From Gemmatimonadota bacterium (GTDB lineage: Bacteria > Gemmatimonadota > Gemmatimonadetes > Gemmatimonadales > GWC2-71-9), in contig JBGPDL010000004.1 in the NCBI GenBank assembly GCA_041482275.1, forward strand, positions 9,862 through 73,861: DNA of 64,000 nt, given 5' to 3'. The translations under genes were made by a program, and so were the position numbers. Positions within the stretch are counted from its first letter, which is position 1; each line of letters begins with the position of its first letter. The notes under the pieces were generated by a model that was not told where the DNA came from, searched no databases, and saw only the letters and a program-made list of their open reading frames with translations. Of the stretch, positions 1 to 46,281 are shown in pieces.

Positions 1-2547
1 CGACCGTAAACGGACGACCACGCAGCGCCGGCGGGATGGTGACCGTGTGCCGCCCGGACGCGTAGTTCAACGCCCCCTGGCCCAGCTGCTGTCCGGTGGA
101 ATCGAAATCGGTGACGCCGAAATCCGTGAAGTCGTCCCACTGCTCGCGCGGCATCGCCACGTCCACCACGGCCCGGGCGGCCCACTCCGGCACCCGGACG
201 CTCACGCTCTCGGCGGCTGCGCCGCGCCCCGCCACGGCCATCGTGCGCTCCGCCCCCACGAGCGATGGGCGCGCCCGACCGGCGGCAGTCTCCGAACCCG
301 TGTTCGTGGCTTCCAGGCGCGTCGCCGCCTCGCTCAAGGCCACTGGGGCGAGCCGCGCGCGTACGGTGACCACCGCTCCCGCGAGGGGCGGCGCGAACAC
401 GTCCAGCTCGTACACCCCCGGGACCAGATCCTCGGCCCGTACCAGGAACCGAGCGGTGCCGGGCTCGGCGTGACCGAGCGCGACCTCTTCCGCGTCGCGG
501 AACGGCTGGCCCCCCGGCTCGTACAATCGAGCGGTGGCTCCCTGTTGCACCGAATCCGGGAGCGTCACGCTCGCGTCCAAGGTTGCTCCGGCCTGCGCCA
601 CGCGCAGGAAGTAGCGCTGTACGCGCGCACGGCCGATGGCGCGCCGCTCGTCGAACAAGGGCCTGGCGCTCACGTCCAACGGCACGATGACCGTGTTCGC
701 GAGCGTGAACAGCGGGCCCGCGAGCGTGTCGCTCGGATTCCAGGCGCGCACGACGCCGATGTAGAGCCCCGGCGCTGTGAGCGCGCCCGCGGCGTACGTC
801 ACCGGAATGTCCGTTTCGCGCGGGCCCGCCTGTATGCTGGATGGCACCGAGAGCCAGGGCACGCTGCTCTTCAGGAGGAATTCCGCGGCCCGCAGCCCCG
901 CCGCGTGCCGGACGCGGAACGGCTGCAGCGTATCCGCCGGCCCGGCGAGCCCGGACGCCCGGAACGCCGCGGAGCCCCCGGCGGGTGTTCGCACCACATA
1001 TGCCGACCCCTGGTGGCCGGCGACCAGCCAGCGGTACGCGGTCTCGAGCCGGGGGAGACCCGCGCCGTCGTCGATCACCGTCTCGCCGCCGAACGGGATC
1101 GCTGAGACGCGCAGCGCCTGCATCACGTCCGCCGCACTCACCGCGCGGCCCGACTGCTGCATTGCCGAGAGAAGGCAGGCGGCAAGGCCGGCCGCGTGGG
1201 GCGCGGCCATGCTGGTGCCGCCCTTGATCTCATTCGCGGTATCCCAGCGCGGGACGGACGAGAAGGCGACTCCCGGGGCCACGAGATCCGGCTTGCCGAC
1301 CTCGCCCCCGCGCGAGCTCCACCACCCCATCACGTCGGCCTCAGGAGGCGTGCCGGCCTGGGGAGGCCGAGCGAACGCCCCGGGGTAGGAGGCGCCCACG
1401 GAGAGCGCGAGATCCGCCGAGCCGGGGAACCCCATCGTCGAGAGGCCGGGGCCGTCGTTCCCGGCGCTGATCGTGAATACGATGCCCGGATGCGCCGCGA
1501 GGAAGGCGTTGACGATCGAGTCGATGACGGCGTGTCCTTCGAACTCGTTGCCCACGCCGAAGCTCAGGTTGAGGACGAGCGGCATGTTGCGTTGCTCGGC
1601 GTAGCGGGCCGCGTAGAGCATCGCCCGCTGCATGCTGCCGCTCACCGAGATACCGCCGCGCGCTGCGTTGGCGATCTTCAGGCCGAGGAGTTGCGCCCCC
1701 GGCGCTACGCCGTCGAAGCCGGTCAGGTTGAACAGGCTGTGACCCGCCGCGATGCCGGCGACGTGGGTGCCGTGGCCGCCGTTGTCGAAGAAGAAATCGA
1801 GCGCCGGGACACCGCCCACGTCGGTGAAATTGGCCGCCAGCGTGATGGGCTTGCTGCCGAGGGCGATCGTCTCGCGGCCCTCGCGATAATCGTGCAGCGG
1901 CATTTCGTCCTCGAACGAGCCGTTCAGGTTGGAGTCGACGAACGCCGCCCAACCGTCGGTTGCCTTGACCACGATCACCGGAAAGACGTCGGTGTTGTTG
2001 CCGTCGCCGTTCAGGTCCGCCCCCGGCACTTTGCCGAGCGGCAGCTCGCGCAGCAGTCCCGCGTACCACGTTTCGGCGCGCGTCAGACGTCCGATGCGGC
2101 CGGCGCCCGCGAGCTGCTGCCCGCCCACGGACACCGTACCGTCTTCGGCCGGCGTGACGGGAGCGAGCGCGACCCGCCCCTCGCCCGAGAAGTCGCGCAG
2201 CTCGACGACCTTCGGCGCGCCGGTGCTGGTCGTGATCAGTCCGTCGATGCCGGGATCGACGCCGGTGTCCAGAATGGCGATCAGCACACCCCGGCCGTCG
2301 TACGTCGGGTGCCGGGTCCGGAACTCGTCCACGCCGGTACTCTTCAAGGGCATCAGCCCCGCCATCAGCGCGACCGCGGGCGGGAGGGCTGGCGCACGCC
2401 CCGGAGCCGCGACCGCGTCGGCCGGCGCGGCGCCGGTGGCCGGATTGGGTGAGGAGGGCTGACGCGGCGTCGGGGCGGTGTTCGGGTGCGGGCCGGCGCC
2501 GCAGGCAGTCCCCAGCATGAAGAGAGCGGCGCAAAGGCTGCGTGGCA

Positions 2548-2551
<4 letters not shown>
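1..2551 (-). CDS. S8 (subtilisin-family) serine peptidase, predicted lipoprotein; C-terminal end lies beyond the window start
   Basis: Absent from the ORF track because it runs off the left edge. My reverse-complement read from the ATG at 2551 gives MMPRSLCAALFMLGTAC (signal peptide plus lipobox). It then shows ILDTGVD, HGTHVAG and GTSMAAPH, the Asp/His/Ser triad motifs of subtilases. The frame stays open to position 1. The start overlaps the upstream stop as ATGA. Confidence 0.8.
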
Positions 2552-4116
<1,565 letters not shown>

Positions 4117-4149: not shown

Positions 4150-4566
4150 TCAGGCCGAGACATGATCCGCCGCCCATTCCTCGATGTACTTGATGAGCTC
4201 TGCCGTCGGCGTGCCGGGACCGAACAACCGGCCGATCCCCTGCTGGCGCAGCGCGTCGGTGTCTTCCGGCGGAATGATCCCGCCGCCCGTCACGAGTACG
4301 TCCTCGCGCCCGGCATCGACCAGGAGCCGCTTGACGCGCGGAAACAGCGTGAGGTGCGCGCCCGACAGGATGGACAATCCCACGACGTCGACGTCTTCCT
4401 GGATGGCCGCCTGGGCAATCATCTCGGGCGTCTGGTGCAGGCCGGTGTAAATGACCTCCATCCCGGCGTCGCGCAGCGCCGCCGCCACGACCTTCGCGCC
4501 GCGGTCGTGCCCGTCCAGCCCGGGCTTCGCCACGAGCACCCGGATGGGACGTTTGGGCCCGGGCAT
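4150..4566 (-). CDS. B12-binding small subunit (C-terminal domain) of a split acyl-CoA mutase
   Basis: 138 aa. [20 protein letters not shown] contains the DxHxxG cobalamin-binding motif, and SILSGAH...VTGGGIIP is typical of the mutase B12 domain. Confidence 0.9.
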
Positions 4567-5678
4567 CAGCGGCGGAACCGGAGCAGCGCCGCGAGACCGT
4601 CCACCGCGCGGCGGGCCTTGTCGTCGTACAGCACGTCGACTTGCGCCCGCTGACGCAGAGCTTCCTCCACCGCCTCGTCGAGCCGGGGATCGTCGTCGTT
4701 GCCGTCCGCCAGCAGGGTGCGGACCTGACCCTTGGCCAAGGCCTTCACCGTGGGCGCGATGCCGTTCACGGCCCAGCCGGTCGCGACGCCTTCCTTCACC
4801 GCCTCGGCGTGGGCTTGCTCCCAGGCTCGCTCACGTTGGTCGCGCAGCAGCAGCGCGGCATCCCGCACCTCGGCGGGGCTCGCCTGCTTGGGATTGAGCT
4901 TGACCACGCCCAGCAGCAGGTCGTGCAGGTAGGTATGGAGGTGCGGGACCAGCGCGGCGGCGTCCACACCGATCCCCGCCACTGCGAGCCCGGCGAGTGG
5001 ACGCTGGCTGTGTATCTGGTAGATGTGATCCGCCACGCGCGCGTAATGCCGGTGCTTTTCCTCCCGGATGCGCATGTGGTAGTTGTGCTCGCCGTAGCCA
5101 CCGCCCAGCATGGCGCCGCGTATCGCCTGGCGCTCGCCGTGGAACTTGCCTGCGCGCGTCGCAGTAGCGGTGAGGCCCGGCAGCTCCGTGACGTCGAAGG
5201 CGGTGACCTCGAAGAACCGCGCGCCCGTGCGATCGCACGCAGCCACGAGGATCGTCCCGAATTCCTGCTCCAGCGCCACCAGTTCGCGCACCAGCGGCGT
5301 GGGGTCGACCCGGAGCCGCGAGCGATGCACGTGCGGCAACGGCACTACGTTGAACAATCCCAGCGGCTGGCAGGCGAACACGGCGATGCCCCGGGACGGC
5401 GGCAGGCGCCCCGGCTCGTCGAAGTAGCGGCGCACCCGCTCGAGATCCGCCGCCACGCCGTCGCGCACCGCGCGCTCGAGGCCCTGGCGGTCGAGCGCCG
5501 CAAGCGCCTCGCGCACCCGGTTTTTCATCTTGATGAGATACTTGCCGCGGGTCTTGTCCCGCGGCTCGAGCTTCAGGTAGCAGGAGACCACGCGGTACGG
5601 CCCCGGCTCGACCGCGGCGAGCCGCCGCAGCACGTCGCGCACGGCGTCCACGGTGCCCGCGACAGGTAGCGCGGTCAT
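4566..5678 (-). CDS. eRF1/Pelota/Vms1-like (bacterial aeRF1-type) protein of unknown function
   Basis: 370 aa with three parts. N-terminal [14 protein letters not shown]; central [22 protein letters not shown] (a GxxQ / Gly-rich loop where eRF1 has GGQ); C-terminal [25 protein letters not shown], which resembles eRF1 domain 3. There is a 3-nt gap to the upstream mutase stop and a TGATG overlap with the downstream start. Confidence 0.6.
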
Positions 5679-5681
5679 GAT

Positions 5682-7247
5682 CTAGAAGAACACCGGTTCG
5701 CGGTATGCGCCGTATACCCGTTCGAGCGCGTGCCGGATCTCGTATAACGTGCAGTAGGCGCGGGCGCAGTCGAGCATCGGGCCGAGCACGTTGTGGTCGC
5801 CGAGCGCCGCTTGGTGCAGCGCCTCCAGACGCCCGGCGACGAGCGACACATCGCGCTCGCCGCGCACCCGTCCGAGCCGGCGCCGCTGCGCTTCCTCGGC
5901 GTCGCCCGAGACCTTGAGGATCTCGACCGGGTGGTCGTCCTCGCTCAGGAAGTCGTTGACACCGACCAGCACACGTTCTCCCCGCTCGACATCGCGCTGG
6001 AATTCCTCGGCCGAGCGCGCAATCTGCCGCTGGAACCAGCCGCTCTCGATCCCCTTCACCACCCCACCGATCGACTGAATCTCCGCGAACAGTGCCTCCG
6101 CCTCCCGCTCGAGCTGATCGGTGCGCGCCTCCACGTAGTACGATCCGCCCAGCGGGTCGGTGACCTCCGGGATGCCCGTTTCGTGTGCGATGATCTGCTG
6201 CGTGCGCAGCGCCAGGCGGACCGCCTCCTCGGTGGGGAGCGCGAGCGTTTCATCCAGGGAGTTTGTGTGGAGCGACTGTGTACCTCCCAGAACGGCGGCC
6301 AGCGCTTGGTAGGCCACCCGCACCACGTTGTTCATCGGCTGTTGCGCGGTGAGCGTGACGCCGGCCGTCTGCGAGTGGAAGCGCATCATCCAGGAACGCG
6401 GGCTCTTGGCACCGTGCCGCTCCCGCATGTGACGGGCCCAGATGCGGCGCGCCGCTCGCAGCTTGGCGATCTCCTCGAAGAAATCGTTGTGGATGTCCCA
6501 GAAGAACGAGAGGCGCGGCGCGAACGCGTCCACATCCAGTCCCCGCGCCACGCCTCGCTCCACGTACGTGAACCCGTTGGCCAGCGTGAACGCGAGCTCT
6601 TGCGCCGCGGTGGCTCCCGCTTCGCGGATGTGGTAACCCGAGATCGAGATCGTATTCCAGAGCGGGGCGTGCGTGGCGCACCACTCGAACATGTCCACGA
6701 TGATCTTCAACGCCGGCTCGACGGGATAGACCCAGGCGTGCTGGGCCATGTACTCCTTGAGGATGTCGTTCTGCACCGTCCCGCGGAGCTTGTCGCTCGC
6801 CACCCCTTGTCTCTCAGCTGCGGCCACGTAGAAGCAGAACAGGATGGCCGCGGGGCCGTTGATGGTCATGGAGGTCGACACCTGATCGAGCGGAATACCG
6901 CGGAACAAATCCTCCATGTCGGCGAGCGACGAGATCGCGACGCCGCATTTGCCTACCTCCCCTTCGGCACGGGGATGGTCGGAGTCGTAGCCCATCAGCG
7001 TCGGAAAATCGAACGCGACCGACAGGCCCGTCTGGCCGTGCTCGAGCAGGAACTTGTAGCGCCGGTTGGTGTCCTGGGCGCTGCCGAAGCCCGCGAACTG
7101 GCGCATGGTCCAGAGCCTGCCCCGGTACATTGTCGGGTGGATGCCGCGCGTGAACGGGTATGCCCCCGGCGCGCTCAACGCGCCGTCGGTGTCGAAGCCG
7201 GCGAGATCCGCCGCTGTGTAGACGACTTGCTTCTCGATTCCGCTCAT
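5682..7247 (-). CDS. acyl-CoA mutase large (catalytic, TIM-barrel) subunit, methylmalonyl-CoA mutase family
   Basis: Trimmed from ORF 5682..7376 to the internal MSGIEKQ start, which overlaps the meaB stop as ATGA. Colinear by eye with MutB: [85 protein letters not shown]. Confidence 0.9.
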
Positions 7248-8314
7248 CGCGCCGTCCCGGTCTTCATCTGATCGAGGATCTCCGCTGCCACATCGTAGGG
7301 GCTCCGGCGCCCGTCCGTCACGTCGTCCAGGCGCTGCGCCAGGAGCTCCTCGGCGTGGGTCGCCTCCATCACCCAACGCTGCACACTCCGTTCCAGCACG
7401 GCGCGGGTGCGCGCCGCGAGCCGCTGCCGCCGCCGCTCGGGCAGCTTCCCGGTGGTCTCAAGATAGGCGTAATGGTGGTCGAGGGCAGCGGCGAGCTCGT
7501 CCACGCCGACGCCCGTCGACGCAACCGTGGCGAGCACCGGAGGCTCCCATTGGTCGGACGGTCGGACCGCCGGACTGTCGGACCGTCCTGAACCACCGCC
7601 CTCCGACCGTCCGGCGATTCGACGGTCCGCGCGGTGGTGCGGCCCCACGTGCCGGAACGCGTTTCCCCGCCGGAGACCGAGCATGACTTCGACTTCTTGC
7701 CGCAGCCTGTCCCCCCCCGGACGGTCGCTCTTGTTGACGACGTACAGATCCGCGATCTCCATCACGCCGGCCTTCAAGGTTTGAATCCCGTCGCCCGACT
7801 CCGGTACGAGCACGAGCACCGTCGTCTCCGCGGTGCGCGCGATGTCGAGCTCGGTTTGCCCCACGCCTACGGTCTCCACCAGAATGCGCTCGAAGCCGAA
7901 CGCTTCCAGCAGATCCGTGACTTCCTCCGTGGTGGTGGCGAGCCCGCCGTGGGCGCCGCGCGTGGCCATGGAGCGGATGAAGACGTGCGGATCGAGGCTG
8001 ACCGATTCCATCCGGATCCGATCACCGAGCAGCGCGCCGCCGGTGAAGGGACTCGTGGGATCCACGGCCACCACGCCGACCGATCGTCCCTGGGCGCGGA
8101 ACCGCTGGATGAGGGCCTCCGTCAAGGTGCTCTTGCCGGCGCCGGGCGGGCCTGTGATCCCGATGCGCCTCGCCCCGCCGCGGCCGAGCAGCCCGTGCGC
8201 GTGCGACAGCACGCGCTCGAACCCGTCACGCTGGTTCTCGACCAGGGTGATGGCACGCGCCAGCGCCGCAGGCTCGCGCCGGGAGAACCCCTCGAGAATC
8301 CGTTCCACGCTCAT
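7244..8314 (-). CDS. meaB: MeaB/ArgK-type G3E GTPase (mutase chaperone)
   Basis: Trimmed from ORF 7244..8746 to [10 protein letters not shown]; the upstream 144 codons are Arg/Ser-rich shadow sequence. P-loop [13 protein letters not shown], then [10 protein letters not shown] and VVNKSD. Confidence 0.9.
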
Positions 8315-8342
8315 CCAAAGTAACCATGCGCGCGGTGGTGCA

Positions 8343-9542
8343 TCACACCGGCTCCGTCCCGCGCTCGAGCGACACCGCGCGCACCGGCCCCGGCCGTACC
8401 GCGACGCGCTCGACCCGCGTCGCGGTGGCGGCGAGGATGTCGAACTCGAGACCTTGCAGCGTGAAACGCTCGCCCGGCCGGGGAATGCGCCCCAGCGCCT
8501 GCACCAGCAGGCCGCCGACAGTTTGGACGCCGCGGGCCTCGAGCCGCACGCCCAGCAGCTCTTCGATCCGGCTGGCCGGGGCGCTCCCCTCGATCTCGGC
8601 GATCCGCGCGGGTGGCTCCAGGCTCGGGGGCTGGGCGGCCGGCTCGAAGATCTCCGACACCAAGTCGCGCAGCAGATCCTCGAGCGTGACGAGACCGGCG
8701 GTGCCGCCGAACTCGTCGAGCACCACGGCGAGGTGACTCCGGCCACGCTGCATCTCGAGCACGAGATCGGCGGCGCGGGTGGTTCCGGGCACCATCAGCG
8801 TCGGCCGCACCGGCACGGCCGCGTCCGGGGGCAGCCGCAGCAGGTCGAACGCGTGTGCCACGCCCACCACCTCGTCGAGCGATCCGCGGTGCACGGGATA
8901 GCGACTGTAGCGCGACTGCAGGCACACGTGTGCCGCCTCGGCTGCGGGCAGCCCCTCCGGGATCGCCACGATGGACGTGCGGGGCGTCATCAATTCCCGG
9001 ACGGGCCGGTCCGCGAACGCCAGCACGCCGGATACGACGGCCATCTCGTCGGCGGAGGCCAGCGCTTCCGTGTCGGCGCTCGTGAGCACCGCGGCCAGCG
9101 TGGTGCGCCGCGAGGGGTCGCGCCAGGGCACGAACGGCGCCAACACCCGGCCGAGCTTCTCGAGTCGTGGCGCCGCATGCGCCACGATCGGCTCCGCCCA
9201 GCGCCGGCCTACCACGCGGGGCACGAGGTACGCCACGCTCACGAGCAGGGGCACGCCCAGGGCGACGGTGAAGACGCCGAGCACCGTCGGCGTGGTGCGG
9301 GCCAGGAGCGCCGGAATGACGGCGGCCGCGCACACGGTGCCGATGGTGCTGAGCGCGTTCGCCGTGGCGAGCACCCGCCCGGGGTTCTCGAGCACGCCGG
9401 CCGCTCCGCCCGCGCCGCGCAGCTTGTACGACACCCAGCGCGTCAGCTCGAGCTGGCTCACGGCCGCGGCGGCGACGCCTGTCGCCGCGGCCGTCACCGC
9501 GAGCACCAGCCCAGAGGTGAGCAACACCACGGGCAGGATCAC
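8343..9542 (-). CDS. CNNM/CorC-HlyC family transporter (DUF21 membrane domain + CBS pair + CorC_HlyC)
   Basis: 399 aa. N-terminal TM helices, then VRELMTPRTSIVAI, HLAVVLDEFGGTAGLVTLEDLL and a C-terminal GERFTLQGLEFDIL. GTGA overlap with the upstream gene. Confidence 0.85.
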   Translation of the reverse strand: MILPVVLLTSGLVLAVTAAATGVAAAAVSQLELTRWVSYKLRGAGGAAGVLENPGRVLATANALSTIGTVCAAAVIPALLARTTPTVLGVFTVALGVPLLVSVAYLVPRVVGRRWAEPIVAHAAPRLEKLGRVLAPFVPWRDPSRRTTLAAVLTSADTEALASADEMAVVSGVLAFADRPVRELMTPRTSIVAIPEGLPAAEAAHVCLQSRYSRYPVHRGSLDEVVGVAHAFDLLRLPPDAAVPVRPTLMVPGTTRAADLVLEMQRGRSHLAVVLDEFGGTAGLVTLEDLLRDLVSEIFEPAAQPPSLEPPARIAEIEGSAPASRIEELLGVRLEARGVQTVGGLLVQALGRIPRPGERFTLQGLEFDILAATATRVERVAVRPGPVRAVSLERGTEPV

Positions 9543-10726
9543 GGCTGCCTCTGTACCACGACCCGCGTCACGCGGCGCCGGTCCACCCGGTCGACCACCA
9601 ACTGGTAGCCGTCCAGCGTCACCTCATCGCCCGCCCGCGGCACGCGGCCCAGCGCGGAGTACACCAGTCCGCCGACGGTCGATACCTCCGGGTGCTCGAA
9701 GGTGCGGCCCAGGGCAGCGGAGAGATCGTCGAGCGTGACCCGTCCGTCCACCCAGTAACGATCGCCGTCCTGGCGAATAGCGGGGGCCTCGCTCAAGTCG
9801 TGCTCGTCACGAATCTCCCCGACGATTTCCTCCAGGATGTCCTCGAGCGTGATGAGACCTGACGTCCCGCCGAATTCGTCCACGACGATCGCCAGATGGG
9901 ACGGGCCACGCTGGAAGTCGCGCAGCTGGCTGTCGAGCGTCTTGGTCTCGGGTACGTAGGTCGCGGGCCGTACCAGATCCTGCCAGCGCGCTCCCACCGC
10001 AGGCTCGCCCAGGCCCATCGCGAACGGGACGAAATCCTTCGCGAACACGATGCCCACGATGTTGTCCGACGTGCCGTCGTACACGGGGAGCCGCGTGTGC
10101 TCGCTCTGATGGAACGCCTCGACCACATCGTCGGCCGCCGCCGTCAGGTCGACGGCCACCATGTCGAGGCGCGGCGTCATGACCTCGTCCACCCGCGTGT
10201 CGGCCATCGTAAACACGCCGAGCAGCATGTCGCGCTGCGCCACGCCCAAGTCCGGCGCGAGCGGACGCGGCGTCGCGACCAGACCGTGGAGACCCCTATC
10301 GATCCAGCCGAGCAGCCAGAGCAGCGGGCCAAACGGGGCGAGCGTGCGCCGGGCGAGCGGGAGCGCGACCGCCGCCAGCTCCGGCGCGACGCGCGCCAGG
10401 CTGCGCGGCAGCGCGTCGCCGACGATGAAGAGAAAACCGCAGGCCACGGCCCACCGGGTCAGCGCTTCGGCCCACGGCCGGCGCCACCAGTCGACCGCAT
10501 CGCCAGCGGCGACGGCGCCAAGGATCAGCAGCGCCAGGCGGGCCACGTACAGCGCCCGGTGCAGCGGTACCCGCCCTCCTACCGTCGCCGGCGGTGCATC
10601 ACCGAGCGTGTGGAGCGCTTCGCCTACCGCGGCCTCCTCGCCCAGCGCCAGCAGGCCGGCCCAGAGTCCCGCGGCGCCCGCGACCAGCGCCTGCCCGAAC
10701 GTCAGCGCCACACCGGTCAGCGTCAC
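9539..10726 (-). CDS. CNNM/CorC-HlyC family transporter, second tandem paralogue
   Basis: ORF 9539..10774 trimmed to the GTG at 10726, which overlaps the ybeY stop as GTGA. VDEVMTPRLDMVAV, HLAIVVDEFGGTSGLITLEDILEEIVGEI, GDEVTLDGYQLVVD. Confidence 0.8.
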   Translation of the reverse strand: MTLTGVALTFGQALVAGAAGLWAGLLALGEEAAVGEALHTLGDAPPATVGGRVPLHRALYVARLALLILGAVAAGDAVDWWRRPWAEALTRWAVACGFLFIVGDALPRSLARVAPELAAVALPLARRTLAPFGPLLWLLGWIDRGLHGLVATPRPLAPDLGVAQRDMLLGVFTMADTRVDEVMTPRLDMVAVDLTAAADDVVEAFHQSEHTRLPVYDGTSDNIVGIVFAKDFVPFAMGLGEPAVGARWQDLVRPATYVPETKTLDSQLRDFQRGPSHLAIVVDEFGGTSGLITLEDILEEIVGEIRDEHDLSEAPAIRQDGDRYWVDGRVTLDDLSAALGRTFEHPEVSTVGGLVYSALGRVPRAGDEVTLDGYQLVVDRVDRRRVTRVVVQRQP

Positions 10727-11178
10727 CGGCCCGCACTCACGAGGCGGCGCACGTAGCGCTCCTGACGACGCCACATAGGGGAGCGCGCCCGGCCCGGTCC
10801 TTCAGGATGATCGTATCCCAACACGTGCAGGGTGCCGTGCACCGCGAGGCGAATCAGCTCCTCCTCCACCCCTCCCGATTCCCCCTCCCTCTGTCCTCCC
10901 GTCATCACCCAGCGCTCGGCCGCCATCGGGCAGATGTATACGTCGCCGAGCAGCGCGCCGTCGGGCTGCGGCAGCGCGAACGCCAGTACGTCGGTCAAGC
11001 TCCGGCGGCCGGTCACCCGGCGGTTCAGTCGGCGCATGGCCGGGACGTCGAGCAACGTCAGCTCGACGTGCGCGGCGCGCGCCCCTTCCCACGCCAGCAC
11101 GCGCTGCGCGGCCGCCGCGAGCCGCGCCCGCCCGTCACGCCTTGGCTGCGGGCTGCCACGTCGCCGTGATGCCGCCAC
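10723..11178 (-). CDS. ybeY: rRNA maturation endoribonuclease YbeY
   Basis: 151 aa with the zinc motif HGTLHVLGYDH. The start is uncertain: 11178 overlaps the upstream gene by 44 nt, and an in-frame GTG near 11100 is an alternative. Confidence 0.85.
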   Translation of the reverse strand: MAASRRRGSPQPRRDGRARLAAAAQRVLAWEGARAAHVELTLLDVPAMRRLNRRVTGRRSLTDVLAFALPQPDGALLGDVYICPMAAERWVMTGGQREGESGGVEEELIRLAVHGTLHVLGYDHPEGPGRARSPMWRRQERYVRRLVSAGR

Positions 11179-13312
11179 TGGACTCCGGGTAGTCGATGCG
11201 GTTGTGGTACATGCCGGTGATGATGCGCAGGAATTCCCGCTTGGCCTCGTCGACTTGGCGCAGTGTCATCGGCGCTTCGTCCAACTGGCCGGCGTTCAGC
11301 TTGTTGCGCACGATGTGGTTGACCACCTCTTCGATTTTCGTCGGCGTCAGATCCTCGAGGACGCGCAGCGCCGCCTCGACCGAGTCGGCGAGCATCGTGA
11401 TGGCGGTTTCCGCCGAGTGCGGCTTGGGACCGGGATAGACGTAGTCGCCCGGCTGTGGAGACCCGCCATCGCCGCTCTTCTTGGCGCGATCGAGGAAATA
11501 GGTGATCTCGGTGGTGCCATGGTGCTCGGGGATGAACGCCGCGACGGCATCGGGCAACCCGGCTTCGCGCGCCAGCGCCAGCCCGTCCGTGACGTGCGCC
11601 TTGATGATCAGCGCCGACTGGTACGCCTTGAGTCGGTCGTGGGGGTTGTTGCCACGCGTCTGGTTCTCCACGAAATACTGCGGGTTCTTGATCTTTCCGA
11701 TATCGTGGTAATAGCACCCGACCCGCCCCAGCAGACCGTCGGCGCCGATCCGGTTGCAGGCGGCCTCCACGAGATTCGCCATCGCGACTGAGTGCGCGTA
11801 GGTGCCCGGCGCTTCGAGCGACAGGCGCCGCAGCAGCGGCCGGCTGGGGTCGGACAGCTCGAGCAGCGTGAGGTCGGTGGTGAGCCCGGTGAGCGACTCC
11901 GCGACGGGCAGGAGGAAGAACGTGAGTCCCGCGGAAACGAGCCCGTTGGCCGCACCCCACACGCCCCGCAGGCCGATGTCGGCGGCGCTCCAGCTCGCGG
12001 CGAGCCCGAGCGCCAAGGCGCCGGCCAGGTACCCGAGGGCGATGATCAGCACCGGCACGTAGAAGTTGCTGCGGCTCCGCAACGCGCGAACGGTCAGGGC
12101 CGCGGTCACGCCGCCGATGAGGCAGAGGAACAGCGCCGGCAAGTCGTGGAACACGGGCTGCAGGCCGATGACGATGGCGAGGATCATGGCGGCGATCATC
12201 GAGACGCGGCCGTTGAAGAGCACGGTGAGCATCATCGCCACGAAGGGCAAGACGATGATTTCGGGATGGTGCGGCGCGAACCGCGCCACGGCCGCGGCCT
12301 GCAGCAGGACGAGCGCGAACAGGCCGCCGACCACCGCCACCTGCCGGCGCTCCTGATACGTTTCGCGTCGGTACAGCACCATCAGCACCCAGAAGATCGC
12401 GAGGACCAGCGAGTCGCGCAGCACCGGTCCGAACACACCCCCGACCGAGCGGCTGGTCGCGGCGCCGCGGCGTACCAGGTCACTGTGCAGCGCGACGAGC
12501 TTCTCGTGGGCTTCGTTGGTCACCACCTCGTGGGCCCCGACGATCCGATCGCCGGCGCGCACGATGTACTTGCTGGCATCGACACTGCGGCGCAGCTCGT
12601 CGCGCCGCCGCTCCGTCTCGAGCGTGTTCGGGACCAGGGTGGGCCGGAAGAAGTGTCCGGCGAGCCGGACGTACAGCTGATCGCCAACGCTCGAGCCCCG
12701 GTCCGGATGGATGGCGCGCGCGCGCGACAGATACTGCGCGTATGACAGCACCTGGTCGCGCGACTGCGACTGCTCCCCCGAGCGGCGGCGCACAATGAGC
12801 TCCGATGCCTGCTCCACCTGCAGTACGCCCGGCCCGGTAACGCCAAGCGTCAGAGTTCGGTCGAACAGCTCGCTCAGCGCCTTCTCGAGGCCGTGGCGCT
12901 TCCCGCCCTTGCCCAGGTACGCGGCCTCCGGCGCTCCCAGCGCGAACCCCTGCGCCTTCGCCGCCACCAGGATCGTCGCGGCACCGCCCTGGTCCGCGGC
13001 CGTCTCTACGCTCGCGAAGAACGCGTGCAGGGCGATCTTCGCGCTGTCGAGCGCCCGTTCCTGGTACTGATAAATCGGCTTGACGGTGGCGGCGAGCTCC
13101 TCCGCCTCGCGCGCCAGCTCCTGATCCGACTTGTTCACGGGAAACGTGAACGGCGCGATCACGTCGCGGTCCGCCACCGCACCGGGCGCGAGCAGCGGGG
13201 CGACATTGGTCGCGCTCGAGGGGAACACGACGTAATTGAGCAGCGCCAGGCCCACCACCCAGGCCCAGCGGCTGCCGTGATAGCGTAGCTGCTCGCGGGT
13301 CGGCAGCCTCAT
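11135..13312 (-). CDS. 7TM-receptor HD/HDIG phosphohydrolase (PgpH/YqfF-like)
   Basis: 725 aa with an N-terminal extracytoplasmic region, about 7 TM helices and a C-terminal CYYHDIGKIKNPQYF...IPEHHGTTEITYF. Sits in the usual phoH-ybeY neighbourhood. Confidence 0.85.
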   Translation of the reverse strand: MRLPTREQLRYHGSRWAWVVGLALLNYVVFPSSATNVAPLLAPGAVADRDVIAPFTFPVNKSDQELAREAEELAATVKPIYQYQERALDSAKIALHAFFASVETAADQGGAATILVAAKAQGFALGAPEAAYLGKGGKRHGLEKALSELFDRTLTLGVTGPGVLQVEQASELIVRRRSGEQSQSRDQVLSYAQYLSRARAIHPDRGSSVGDQLYVRLAGHFFRPTLVPNTLETERRRDELRRSVDASKYIVRAGDRIVGAHEVVTNEAHEKLVALHSDLVRRGAATSRSVGGVFGPVLRDSLVLAIFWVLMVLYRRETYQERRQVAVVGGLFALVLLQAAAVARFAPHHPEIIVLPFVAMMLTVLFNGRVSMIAAMILAIVIGLQPVFHDLPALFLCLIGGVTAALTVRALRSRSNFYVPVLIIALGYLAGALALGLAASWSAADIGLRGVWGAANGLVSAGLTFFLLPVAESLTGLTTDLTLLELSDPSRPLLRRLSLEAPGTYAHSVAMANLVEAACNRIGADGLLGRVGCYYHDIGKIKNPQYFVENQTRGNNPHDRLKAYQSALIIKAHVTDGLALAREAGLPDAVAAFIPEHHGTTEITYFLDRAKKSGDGGSPQPGDYVYPGPKPHSAETAITMLADSVEAALRVLEDLTPTKIEEVVNHIVRNKLNAGQLDEAPMTLRQVDEAKREFLRIITGMYHNRIDYPESSGGITATWQPAAKA

Positions 13313-13313
13313 G

Positions 13314-14270
13314 TCAGCCCTGCGCGTCCTCGGCGTACGCCCGGATGATGTCCCGTACCAGGCGGTGCCGTACGACGTCCATGTCCCCGAGGTAACAGAA
13401 ACGGATCCCTTCGATCCCGGGGAGGATCCGCTCCACCTGCAGCAGGCCCGAGTCTTCCCGATTCGCCAAATCGATCTGCGTTTTGTCTCCCGTGATCACC
13501 GCTCGCGAGTTCACGCCCAGTCGCGTCAGAAACATCTTCATCTGCATGCCGGTCGCGTTCTGCGCTTCATCGAGAATCACAAAGGCGTCGGACAGCGTGC
13601 GGCCCCGCATGTAGGCGAGCGGCGCGATCTCGATGGTGCGGCTGTCAATCGCCTTCTGCACCCGGTCCCGCGGCATCATGTCCTCGAGCGCGTCGTACAG
13701 CGGCCGCAAGTAGGGGTCGACCTTCTCGTGCAGGTCGCCGGGCAGGAAGCCCAGGTTCTCCCCCGCTTCCACCGCCGGGCGCGCCAGCACGATGCGCCGT
13801 ACGCGCTTGCGCGACAGCGCGTCCACCGCCGCCGCCACCGCCAAATAGGTCTTCCCCGTGCCGGCCGGGCCGATCCCGATCACGATATCGTGCTGCGCCA
13901 CCGCCTGAAGGTACTCGCGTTGCCCCGCGGTCTTCGGCTGGATCACGCGACGCAGCCCCGGGAGGATGATCCGATACTCCCCCTCGGCGGCAGCGCCGGC
14001 CGGTGCGCGCCCCTCGTCGCTCACGATCCGGTCCACATCGGCCACCTCGAGCGCCTCGCCCATGCGCGCCAGATCCACCAGGGCCTGGGCCACGGGTGCG
14101 GCGCGCTCGACCGCCGGGAGCGGGCCGTGCAGCATCAGCACGTCGCCGCGCAGCGACACCCGCACGCCCAGGCGCTTCGCGAGCTCCACCAGGTTGCCAT
14201 CGTTCACGCCGGCGAGGGCGAGCGGGTCTACCCCTTCGGTCGAGAGGCGGTGGGTCACATCGTCGCTCAT
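13314..14270 (-). CDS. phoH: PhoH-like ATPase
   Basis: 318 aa. Walker A GPAGTGKTYLAV, then FVILDEAQN and VITGDKTQIDL. Confidence 0.9.
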   Translation of the reverse strand: MSDDVTHRLSTEGVDPLALAGVNDGNLVELAKRLGVRVSLRGDVLMLHGPLPAVERAAPVAQALVDLARMGEALEVADVDRIVSDEGRAPAGAAAEGEYRIILPGLRRVIQPKTAGQREYLQAVAQHDIVIGIGPAGTGKTYLAVAAAVDALSRKRVRRIVLARPAVEAGENLGFLPGDLHEKVDPYLRPLYDALEDMMPRDRVQKAIDSRTIEIAPLAYMRGRTLSDAFVILDEAQNATGMQMKMFLTRLGVNSRAVITGDKTQIDLANREDSGLLQVERILPGIEGIRFCYLGDMDVVRHRLVRDIIRAYAEDAQG

Positions 14271-45919: not shown

Positions 45920-45924
45920 CTCGA

Positions 45925-46281
45925 TGGAGGCGCGGGGAATCGAACCCCGGTCCGAGAATGACTCCGATACCGCCACTACGTGCGTAGGCGAAGCTTGAGC
46001 GGTCTCACCACCAGGGCGCCTCGCCGGCCCCGGCAGCAACCAGCCCTTACCAGCTCTTACGCGACCCGTTCGGGCACCGGATCACGCCAGCCCGATTTTG
46101 CGATACGTGAGCGCCGCCTCAGGCGGGCTGCCACTCACGCAGGTGCGTGAAGCCGAAGCTTACGCAGCCAGTGCCAGGTTTGAATTGGCAGTTATGAATT
46201 GTGCCAGTGGTTTAGCCAGGTAACTGACAACCTGGGCACGCAGCGACATCCTCGCCAAACCCGTCGAAGCCTGTCGCCCCC
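45925..46281 (-). ncRNA. ssrA: tmRNA (SsrA), one-piece, tag peptide ANSNLALAA
   Basis: The minus strand reads 5' GGGGGCGACAGGCTTCGACGGG ... GGTTCGATTCCCCGCGCCTCCA 3'. The acceptor stem has a G3:U pair and the T-arm is GGTTCGATTCC. The tag frame GCC AAT TCA AAC CTG GCA CTG GCT GCG TAA lies at 46189-46160. CCA is not encoded. Confidence 0.95.

Follow-up and report, generated by a model that had tools for sequence, protein, structure and literature searches.

Why should a gene for a protein that resembles a release factor lie between the two subunit genes of a B12-dependent acyl-CoA mutase? The question arises from a 64,000-nt stretch of a Gemmatimonadota genome (contig JBGPDL010000004.1; referred to here as the window), in which an open reading frame (ORF) of 370 codons occupies that position. 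The original prediction, made from the DNA letters and their translations, placed its product in the eRF1/Pelota superfamily and proposed that it might act on the mutase. We found that the gene belongs, in derived form, to the known family baeRF_family10 and lies in a new, lineage-specific operon context. At a probability that we put at about 0.55, its product is a Balon-type factor of the ribosomal A site whose gene was captured in an isobutyryl-CoA-mutase-like catabolic operon, where it would be co-expressed and translationally coupled with the enzyme.

The Pfam family PF18854 (baeRF_family10), which was defined computationally (Burroughs and Aravind 2019, PMC6514570), matched residues 128-275 of the 370-aa protein with 44.8 bits against a gathering threshold of 27.1 (E 2e-11), and overlapping matches to baeRF families 3, 12 and 5 were weaker and fell below their thresholds. 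Close homologues of the protein were numerous, with 1970 proteins at E <= 0.001. A search of PDB sequences with the single sequence returned nothing useful. We then used a family profile built from 41 sequences, and its best PDB match was a Balon protein. Balon is a ribosome hibernation factor described in P. urativorans and as Msmeg1130 and Rv2629 (Helena-Bueno et al. 2024, PMC10901736), with structures from P. urativorans (8rd8, 8rdv and 8rdw), from M. smegmatis for Msmeg1130 (8v9j and 8v9l) and from M. tuberculosis for Rv2629 (8v9k). The profile matched Msmeg1130 (8v9j) over nearly its full length at E 9e-18; other matches were to Rv2629 (E 2e-10), aRF1 (E 2.5e-8), and Pelota and eRF1 (1e-6 to 1e-4), and the N domain of the P. 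urativorans Balon was matched as well.

An AlphaFold model computed from the same alignment had a mean predicted local distance difference test (pLDDT) score of 86.9 and a predicted template-modelling score of 0.78, with low confidence in residues 1-7 and in a loop at about residues 171-200 (pLDDT <65). When the model was searched with Foldseek, the best PDB match was ribosome-bound Msmeg1130 Balon (8v9j_z; E 1.2e-21, template-modelling (TM) score 0.66/0.68), followed by aRF1, the P. urativorans Balon (8rd8, TM 0.60), Rv2629, eRF1, Pelota and Dom34. Matches to Balon, aRF1, eRF1 and Pelota were full length with a probability of 1.00. In the predicted model the domain order is an N domain, an RNase-H-like middle domain and a Pelota/L7Ae-like C domain, which is that of the aeRF1 (archaeo-eukaryotic release factor) superfamily. 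The NCBIfam Balon families scored below their cut-offs (42.4 bits against 320 for the Rv2629 family and 36.5 against 480 for the MSMEG_1130 family), and on these scores the protein is a homologue of Balon and not an equivalog. Pfam, the profile matches and the AlphaFold/Foldseek comparison together bear out the membership of the eRF1 superfamily that had been proposed from the letters, but the closest characterised relative, Balon, had not been named.

The three domains and the segments of interest lie as follows, with residue numbers that refer to the 370-aa protein.

5289..5678, minus strand: N-terminal domain, about residues 1-130, isoelectric point (pI) 10.4, placed by secondary structure and by how it aligns with the Msmeg1130 and P. 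urativorans Balon N domains; boundary approximate.
5517..5591, minus strand: most conserved segment, 25 residues (30-54), mean column conservation 0.97.
4854..5288, minus strand: middle domain (RNase-H-like, the release-factor core), about residues 131-275, placed by the Pfam match; boundary approximate.
5079..5168, minus strand: flexible loop at the GGQ-loop position, residues 171-200, a run of 24 residues followed by the Arg-rich helix RIREEKHRH; pLDDT below 65.
4566..4853, minus strand: C-terminal domain, about residues 276-370, plus the stop codon, placed by its alignment to domain 3 of aRF1 and to the C domain of Balon; it lacks a Zn-ribbon-like insert that most relatives carry.

The strings quoted in the original prediction are all present in the translation: a 14-residue N-terminal string at residues 28-41, GKFHGERQ at 177-184, MLGGGYGEH at 190-198 and a 25-residue C-terminal string at 301-325. 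Both structural claims made for them held up, since the central loop does sit at the position of the eRF1 GGQ loop in the AlphaFold model and in a middle-domain profile alignment, and the family profile pairs the C-terminal segment with domain 3 of aRF1.

Conservation, computed over 81 short-form orthologues, was highest in the basic N domain, where segment 30-54 falls opposite the P. urativorans Balon loop KTHREHPANDQ with its HP dipeptide in a weak profile alignment (E 0.003) of uncertain register. In this same alignment THREHPAND of P. urativorans stands opposite LEPRDKTR of our protein and ADPTQN of Msmeg1130, and the proline (P39) is conserved. The HP motif of Balon binds the decoding centre (PMC10901736), and we read the HP dipeptide of the aligned loop as that motif. 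In Balon the motif lies in the N domain and contacts A1492/A1913; in this alignment the 370-aa protein lacks its histidine.

In the middle domain, R175, F179, H180, G181, G196, E197, R203, I204, R205, E207 and R210 were each at least 97% conserved; F179, H180 and G181 reached at least 98% each, and Q184 reached 91%. The loop has a 22-residue core that follows the pattern GKFHGxRQ, an insert of 9-13 aa, then GG[YF]GEH, and the insert is gained relative to the long-form orthologues, which are ~48-50% identical to our protein. G181 and Q184 form a G-x-x-Q pattern that can be set beside the conserved catalytic glutamine of Vms1-like (VLRF-1) proteins (G-x-x-Q or GGxSQ), although several orthologues, some long forms (GDHDG) among them, have another residue or a gap in place of Q184. 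The middle-domain profile gave the only profile alignment to aRF1 across the loop, a weak one, which instead places GGQ opposite G193-G194-Y195, with an aromatic residue at the glutamine position. Which residue would match the glutamine of GGQ is therefore ambiguous, as the motif points to Q184 and the profile to Y195. A basic helix after the loop has been proposed to contact large-subunit rRNA across the baeRF-1 families (Burroughs and Aravind, PMC6514570). In Balon the middle domain has a lasso loop around A2602 and a bL27 trap, and at the equivalent position our protein has its 24-residue low-confidence loop, at most a possible counterpart of either.

The C domain contains an insert (alignment columns ~385-425, residues ~326-333 of our protein) that decays stepwise across family 10. 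The distant members P0240, P0255, P0264 and P0267 have a full CxxC...CxxC zinc ribbon, long-form Gemmatimonadota orthologues retain two cysteines, and in the clade of our protein the insert is deleted. Compared with baeRF_family10 at large, then, the protein shares the three domains and the mostly conserved loop glutamine, whereas in its clade the zinc-ribbon insert is degenerate or missing.

The gene lies in an operon that reads leftward along the window.

7244..8314, minus strand: MeaB G-protein chaperone (Pfam E 2e-86; TIGR00750 321 bits against a cut-off of 240.75; start checked).
5682..7247, minus strand: large (substrate-binding) subunit of the acyl-CoA mutase, 521 aa (MM_CoA_mutase Pfam E 1e-219).
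4566..5678, minus strand: baeRF_family10 / Balon-like three-domain protein, 370 aa, ATG start (from the ORF list).
4150..4566, minus strand: B12-binding small subunit, 138 aa (PF02310 E 3e-26; TIGR00640 E 6e-52; DGHDRG, a DxHxxG motif).
2548..4116, minus strand: carboxyltransferase subunit of an acyl-CoA carboxylase, the next gene downstream (PF01039 E 2.5e-127).
1..2551, minus strand: subtilase (S8 peptidase), cut by the window start (PF00082 E 1.5e-33).

The TAG stop of the mutase large subunit (5684-5682) is separated by 3 nt (atc) from the baeRF ATG at 5678 (TTCTTC TAG atc ATG ACC), the baeRF TGA stop and the ATG of the B12 subunit share one base at 4566 (CGC CGC TGATG CCC), and the MeaB stop and mutase start overlap as ATGA at 7247-7244. 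The ORF list and the sequence thus agree with the placement first reported, with its 3-nt gap and TGATG overlap. The same report called the product co-translated with both subunits; the arrangement stands and implies co-transcription and translational coupling, which is the wording we prefer. Inspection of the junction revealed no Shine-Dalgarno-like sequence upstream of the B12-subunit start. We found no second baeRF copy in the window.

We examined whether this arrangement recurs by a scan of species-representative genomes, which returned 80 loci with 65-91% identity to the protein. In nearly every case the title is Gemmatimonadota (Gemmatimonadales, Gemmatimonadetes or Gemmatimonadaceae), and two have uninformative labels. 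With one locus added to these 80, the order MeaB, large subunit, baeRF, B12 subunit, carboxyltransferase was present in 81/81 loci as far as the contigs reach, and the long-form orthologues occupy the same position in the mutase operon, where other genes precede the operon. The spacing was equally recurrent: MeaB to mutase measured -4 nt in 58/63 loci, mutase to baeRF -4 to +5 nt in 64/75, and baeRF to B12 subunit -1 or -4 nt in 76/81. The operon junctions look translationally coupled. The ratio of nonsynonymous to synonymous substitution rates (dN/dS) of the baeRF gene was 0.09-0.19 in close pairs, and its median for all pairs was 0.17; dS is near saturation, which makes all these ratios approximate. 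By the same measure MeaB gave 0.16, similar to the baeRF gene, and the mutase subunits 0.08-0.09, about half the baeRF value. As judged from these ratios and from the column conservation, purifying selection is acting over the whole baeRF protein. Its many homologues, its dN/dS in close pairs and the recurrent junction spacing mark the ORF as a real gene.

Some of these loci had features of their own. In the long-form locus L083 a HAD-family hydrolase gene (8305-8985) separates the baeRF gene from that of the B12 subunit, which indicates that this intergenic position tolerates insertions, and MeaB of that locus was split by the gene calls into ORFs of 235 and 109 aa, possibly through a frameshift or an assembly error. 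The metagenome-assembled genome (MAG) SMAG_U11848 carried two mutase-baeRF operons on separate contigs (L025 and L026), each with a baeRF protein ~75% identical to ours, and the L026 contig ends before the carboxyltransferase. P0108 and P0119, which share the locus-tag prefix VGQ25, likewise represent two operon copies. Two copies per MAG could be a duplication or a strain-mixed bin.

The gene-neighbourhood survey found the linkage to mutase and MeaB genes in other genomes, throughout the mutase-clade loci recovered. It is not a general feature of the family, since it was confined to one monophyletic Gemmatimonadota clade. In a neighbour-joining tree all mutase-linked proteins, short and long forms, fell in one clade, so a single insertion event and vertical inheritance explain the association. 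A separate clade of stand-alone proteins, Gemmatimonadales wherever named, contained P0379 and P0455. We looked up the contexts of the more distant relatives individually. P0379 (Gemmatimonadales; 43% identity to our protein) adjoins PPDK, Archease, RtcB and an HPF (S30AE) gene, and P0455 adjoins BON and Usp genes. P0142 adjoins a two-component system, and P0240 (30% identity), whose MAG bears the label Deltaproteobacteria, has ClpB on one side and DnaK-DnaJ on the other. Three more distant family-10 members had unrelated neighbours. At the P0379 locus (L095/L096) the Archease, RtcB and S30AE (HPF)-CSD genes fall within ~7 kb, an arrangement that resembles reported Balon neighbourhoods. Among the family-10 relatives looked up in this way we found no baeRF-mutase association in other lineages.

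These contexts bear on what the protein does. Balon genes typically lie in stress operons, with RaiA/HPF, Hsp20, RtcB, OsmY and DnaK/J (PMC10901736). Several family-10 relatives resemble them in standing next to HPF, RtcB, Usp, BON/OsmY-like or DnaK/DnaJ genes, whereas our gene lies in a MeaB-mutase-carboxyltransferase operon in all orthologues and not in a stress operon. Balon and our protein are both three-domain aeRF1-like proteins, and in each the place of the GGQ loop is taken by a loop that is long and flexible, but identity is only ~20% to Msmeg1130 and ~12% to the P. urativorans Balon. Balon lacks GGQ and NIKS (PMC10901736), and so does our protein, as neither string occurs in its translation. 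Release factors proper are further away: aRF1/eRF1 and Pelota/Dom34 share the superfamily and domain order (Foldseek E 1e-17 to 1e-7), but their global TM scores are only 0.2-0.5, below those of Balon, and in NCBIfam the protein matched neither TIGR03676 (aRF1_eRF1, at E <= 1) nor acVLRF1. A bacterial host would in any case terminate translation with RF1/RF2.

We therefore favour an A-site factor, because Balon is the best match in both profile and fold, because the conserved basic segments align with the Balon loop that would hold the decoding-centre motif and with the helix proposed to bind rRNA, and because several relatives outside the mutase clade occupy Balon-type stress contexts (RtcB/Archease/HPF, BON/Usp, ClpB/DnaK/DnaJ). 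By homology, the protein would occupy the ribosomal A site. There the invariant EPRD...RGKY loop of its basic N domain would touch the decoding centre, the middle domain would reach large-subunit rRNA near the peptidyl-transferase centre with its long flexible loop and the Arg-rich helix that follows, and the C domain would meet a translational GTPase, which for Balon is EF-Tu. Stop-codon reading is not expected of such a protein, nor, most likely, is peptide release, so that ribosomes would be silenced or protected. In the ancestor of one Gemmatimonadota clade, a paralogue would have been inserted between the mutase large and small subunit genes and retained since. The factor would then be made whenever, and in proportion as, the branched-chain acyl-CoA/peptide operon is expressed, plausibly under nutrient limitation, when ribosomes need idling.

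Several observations weigh against this account. Balon binds the A site with EF-Tu during stress, and for family-10 proteins ribosome binding is a prediction from homology. The aligned site of our protein has no counterpart of the histidine in the Balon HP motif, and no histidine is conserved there among the orthologues. No match was found to the NCBIfam family AOC03_06830, that of the P. urativorans Balon, and the protein scored 36-42 bits with the Balon models, against 49-79 bits for the stand-alone family-10 proteins tested. Having lost the insert of the C domain and gained one in the loop, it is a derived form. The position between the enzyme subunits has been kept from 91% to ~48% identity with coupling-type junctions, and such a retained position exceeds what unrelated passengers usually show. 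Finally, locus-tag prefixes and sample identifiers revealed no genome that holds both a stand-alone and a mutase-embedded copy.

Part of this evidence would suit a protein that has left the ribosome and become an accessory of the mutase, for instance by bridging the subunits, by gating their assembly or by helping with the cofactor loading or repair that depends on MeaB. The gene lies between the subunits in all related loci recovered (the 81 and the long forms), with coupling-type junctions despite differing upstream flanks; its clade is separate from the family-10 clade of stress contexts; and its product no longer has the C-domain insert and, of the family-10 proteins tested, stands furthest from the Balon models. 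Such a role is nevertheless unlikely. The linkage arose once and was inherited, with no independent baeRF-mutase association in other lineages or in the literature searched, and a HAD hydrolase can fill the same gap. All three ribosome-factor domains are kept, the N domain has its pI of 10.4, and the most constrained residues align with the loop that would hold the Balon decoding-centre motif and with the helix proposed for large-subunit rRNA, which leaves the earlier suggestion of an action on the mutase (assembly, cofactor loading or repair) unsupported. B12-mutase accessory proteins of the MeaB/ATR type also offer no parallel, because the baeRF gene shows neither an association in independent lineages nor homology to MeaB or an adenosyltransferase (Pfam and NCBIfam). 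Characterised split and fused mutases are not known to need such a partner. We are similarly doubtful of a reading in which the mutase-embedded clade is a specialised paralogue that links B12-dependent branched-chain acyl-CoA catabolism to translation, by sensing or binding mutase-MeaB or by throttling ribosomes with flux. If it were true, the coupled position between the mutase subunits would be functional and not historical.

The protein could instead be an active rescue factor that hydrolyses peptidyl-tRNA in stalled ribosomes with the glutamine of its G-x-x-Q pattern (HGERQ, Q184), as Vms1 does. HGERQ resembles the eRF1 motif HGRGGQ, and the conservation of F179-H180-G181 (at least 98%) and Q184 (91%) in the 81 orthologues would fit. 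Family 10 has been singled out as retaining a well-conserved glutamine and as a possible peptidyl hydrolase, yet a loop whose length varies, here by 9-13 residues within the clade, was tied by the same authors to inactive families (PMC6514570). Moreover, Q184 varies, no di-glycine precedes it, the weak aRF1 profile alignment puts the aromatic Y195 at the glutamine position, and a tmRNA gene in the window indicates that the host has the standard trans-translation rescue system. With Q184 variable and GGQ aligned elsewhere, we consider catalysis possible but do not favour it, and a dedicated rescue role appears improbable. An unrelated passenger, landed by chance and kept only since its removal would break the translational coupling of the B12 subunit, would have an expression without adaptive meaning. 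The single origin, the HAD gene found in the same gap in one lineage and the overlap of the B12 start with the baeRF stop in 76/81 loci all agree with this, and, as no Shine-Dalgarno-like sequence is visible there, a deletion of the baeRF gene would have to recreate the coupling. We give this explanation little weight, however, because purifying selection over the whole protein means that the protein is used, whatever the reason for its location, and because the position was kept over deep divergence while other operon borders changed.

The chemistry of the host operon probably differs from what its annotation suggests. NCBIfam names the large subunit a methylmalonyl-CoA mutase (MCM) N-terminal domain, and its best PDB sequence match was HcmA (4r3u, 551 bits). 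At the MCM Tyr89 position it has Phe (TMRQFAGF), at the MCM Arg207 position Gln (EYMAQHAW), and at the HCM Asp117 position Ala (GLSVAFD against GISTDFD of HcmA). The Phe/Gln pair marks isobutyryl-CoA-mutase-type enzymes, so from these residues the enzyme is probably of that type rather than a methylmalonyl-CoA mutase, and the chemistry of the operon is corrected to that extent. Split IcmA/IcmB and HcmA/HcmB enzymes with MeaB-type chaperones resemble the host operon, with its large subunit of ~520 aa, B12 subunit of ~138 aa and adjacent MeaB, but the host has an aeRF1-like gene between the subunit genes. In relatives the carboxyltransferase gene is followed by subtilase, AtuA, AtuA_ferredoxin and enoyl-CoA hydratase genes, and this set of operon genes, the carboxyltransferase included, suggests catabolism of branched-chain acyl-CoA and peptides.

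The context appears to be new to the literature searched, while the protein family had already been catalogued. Contexts reported for baeRF-1 are HPF-linked, with no mention of mutases or B12 (PMC6514570). The Balon paper does not mention mutases or Gemmatimonadota (PMC10901736), nor does a 2025 preprint on the evolution of hibernation factors, and the searches found no paper that ties baeRF or Balon to a mutase, and none that joins baeRF with methylmalonyl-CoA mutase. Balon-type factors were recognised only in 2024, mainly from stress-response operons, and here a derived Balon-like member is fixed in a metabolic operon throughout a group of bacteria that is abundant in soil. A functional placement would mean either that ribosome silencing is hard-wired to a catabolic programme or that the aeRF1 fold has been reused outside translation. 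If it is only historical, family 10 still shows separate paralogous clades within sequences called Gemmatimonadales wherever named. The mutase-linked clade also provides a defined set for asking about ribosome binding by family 10 and catalysis by the loop glutamine.

Among the other features of the window, the tmRNA gene is full length (45922-46281, minus strand; Rfam RF00023, 130.8 bits). It was the sole Rfam match and is distant from the mutase operon, near which Rfam gave no cobalamin riboswitch or other regulatory RNA. We also considered a defence-system reading of the baeRF gene, which was dropped as PADLOC gave no match. Upstream of MeaB lies a string of genes, all in one direction, for PhoH, a 7TM-HD protein, YbeY and two CorC/CNNM proteins (8343-14270, minus strand); it ends 28 nt before the MeaB gene. 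YbeY is a nuclease of rRNA maturation and ribosome quality control. The PhoH-YbeY-CorC string adjoins MeaB in locus L001 too, but not in the long-form operons L082-L084, so its adjacency may be coincidental.

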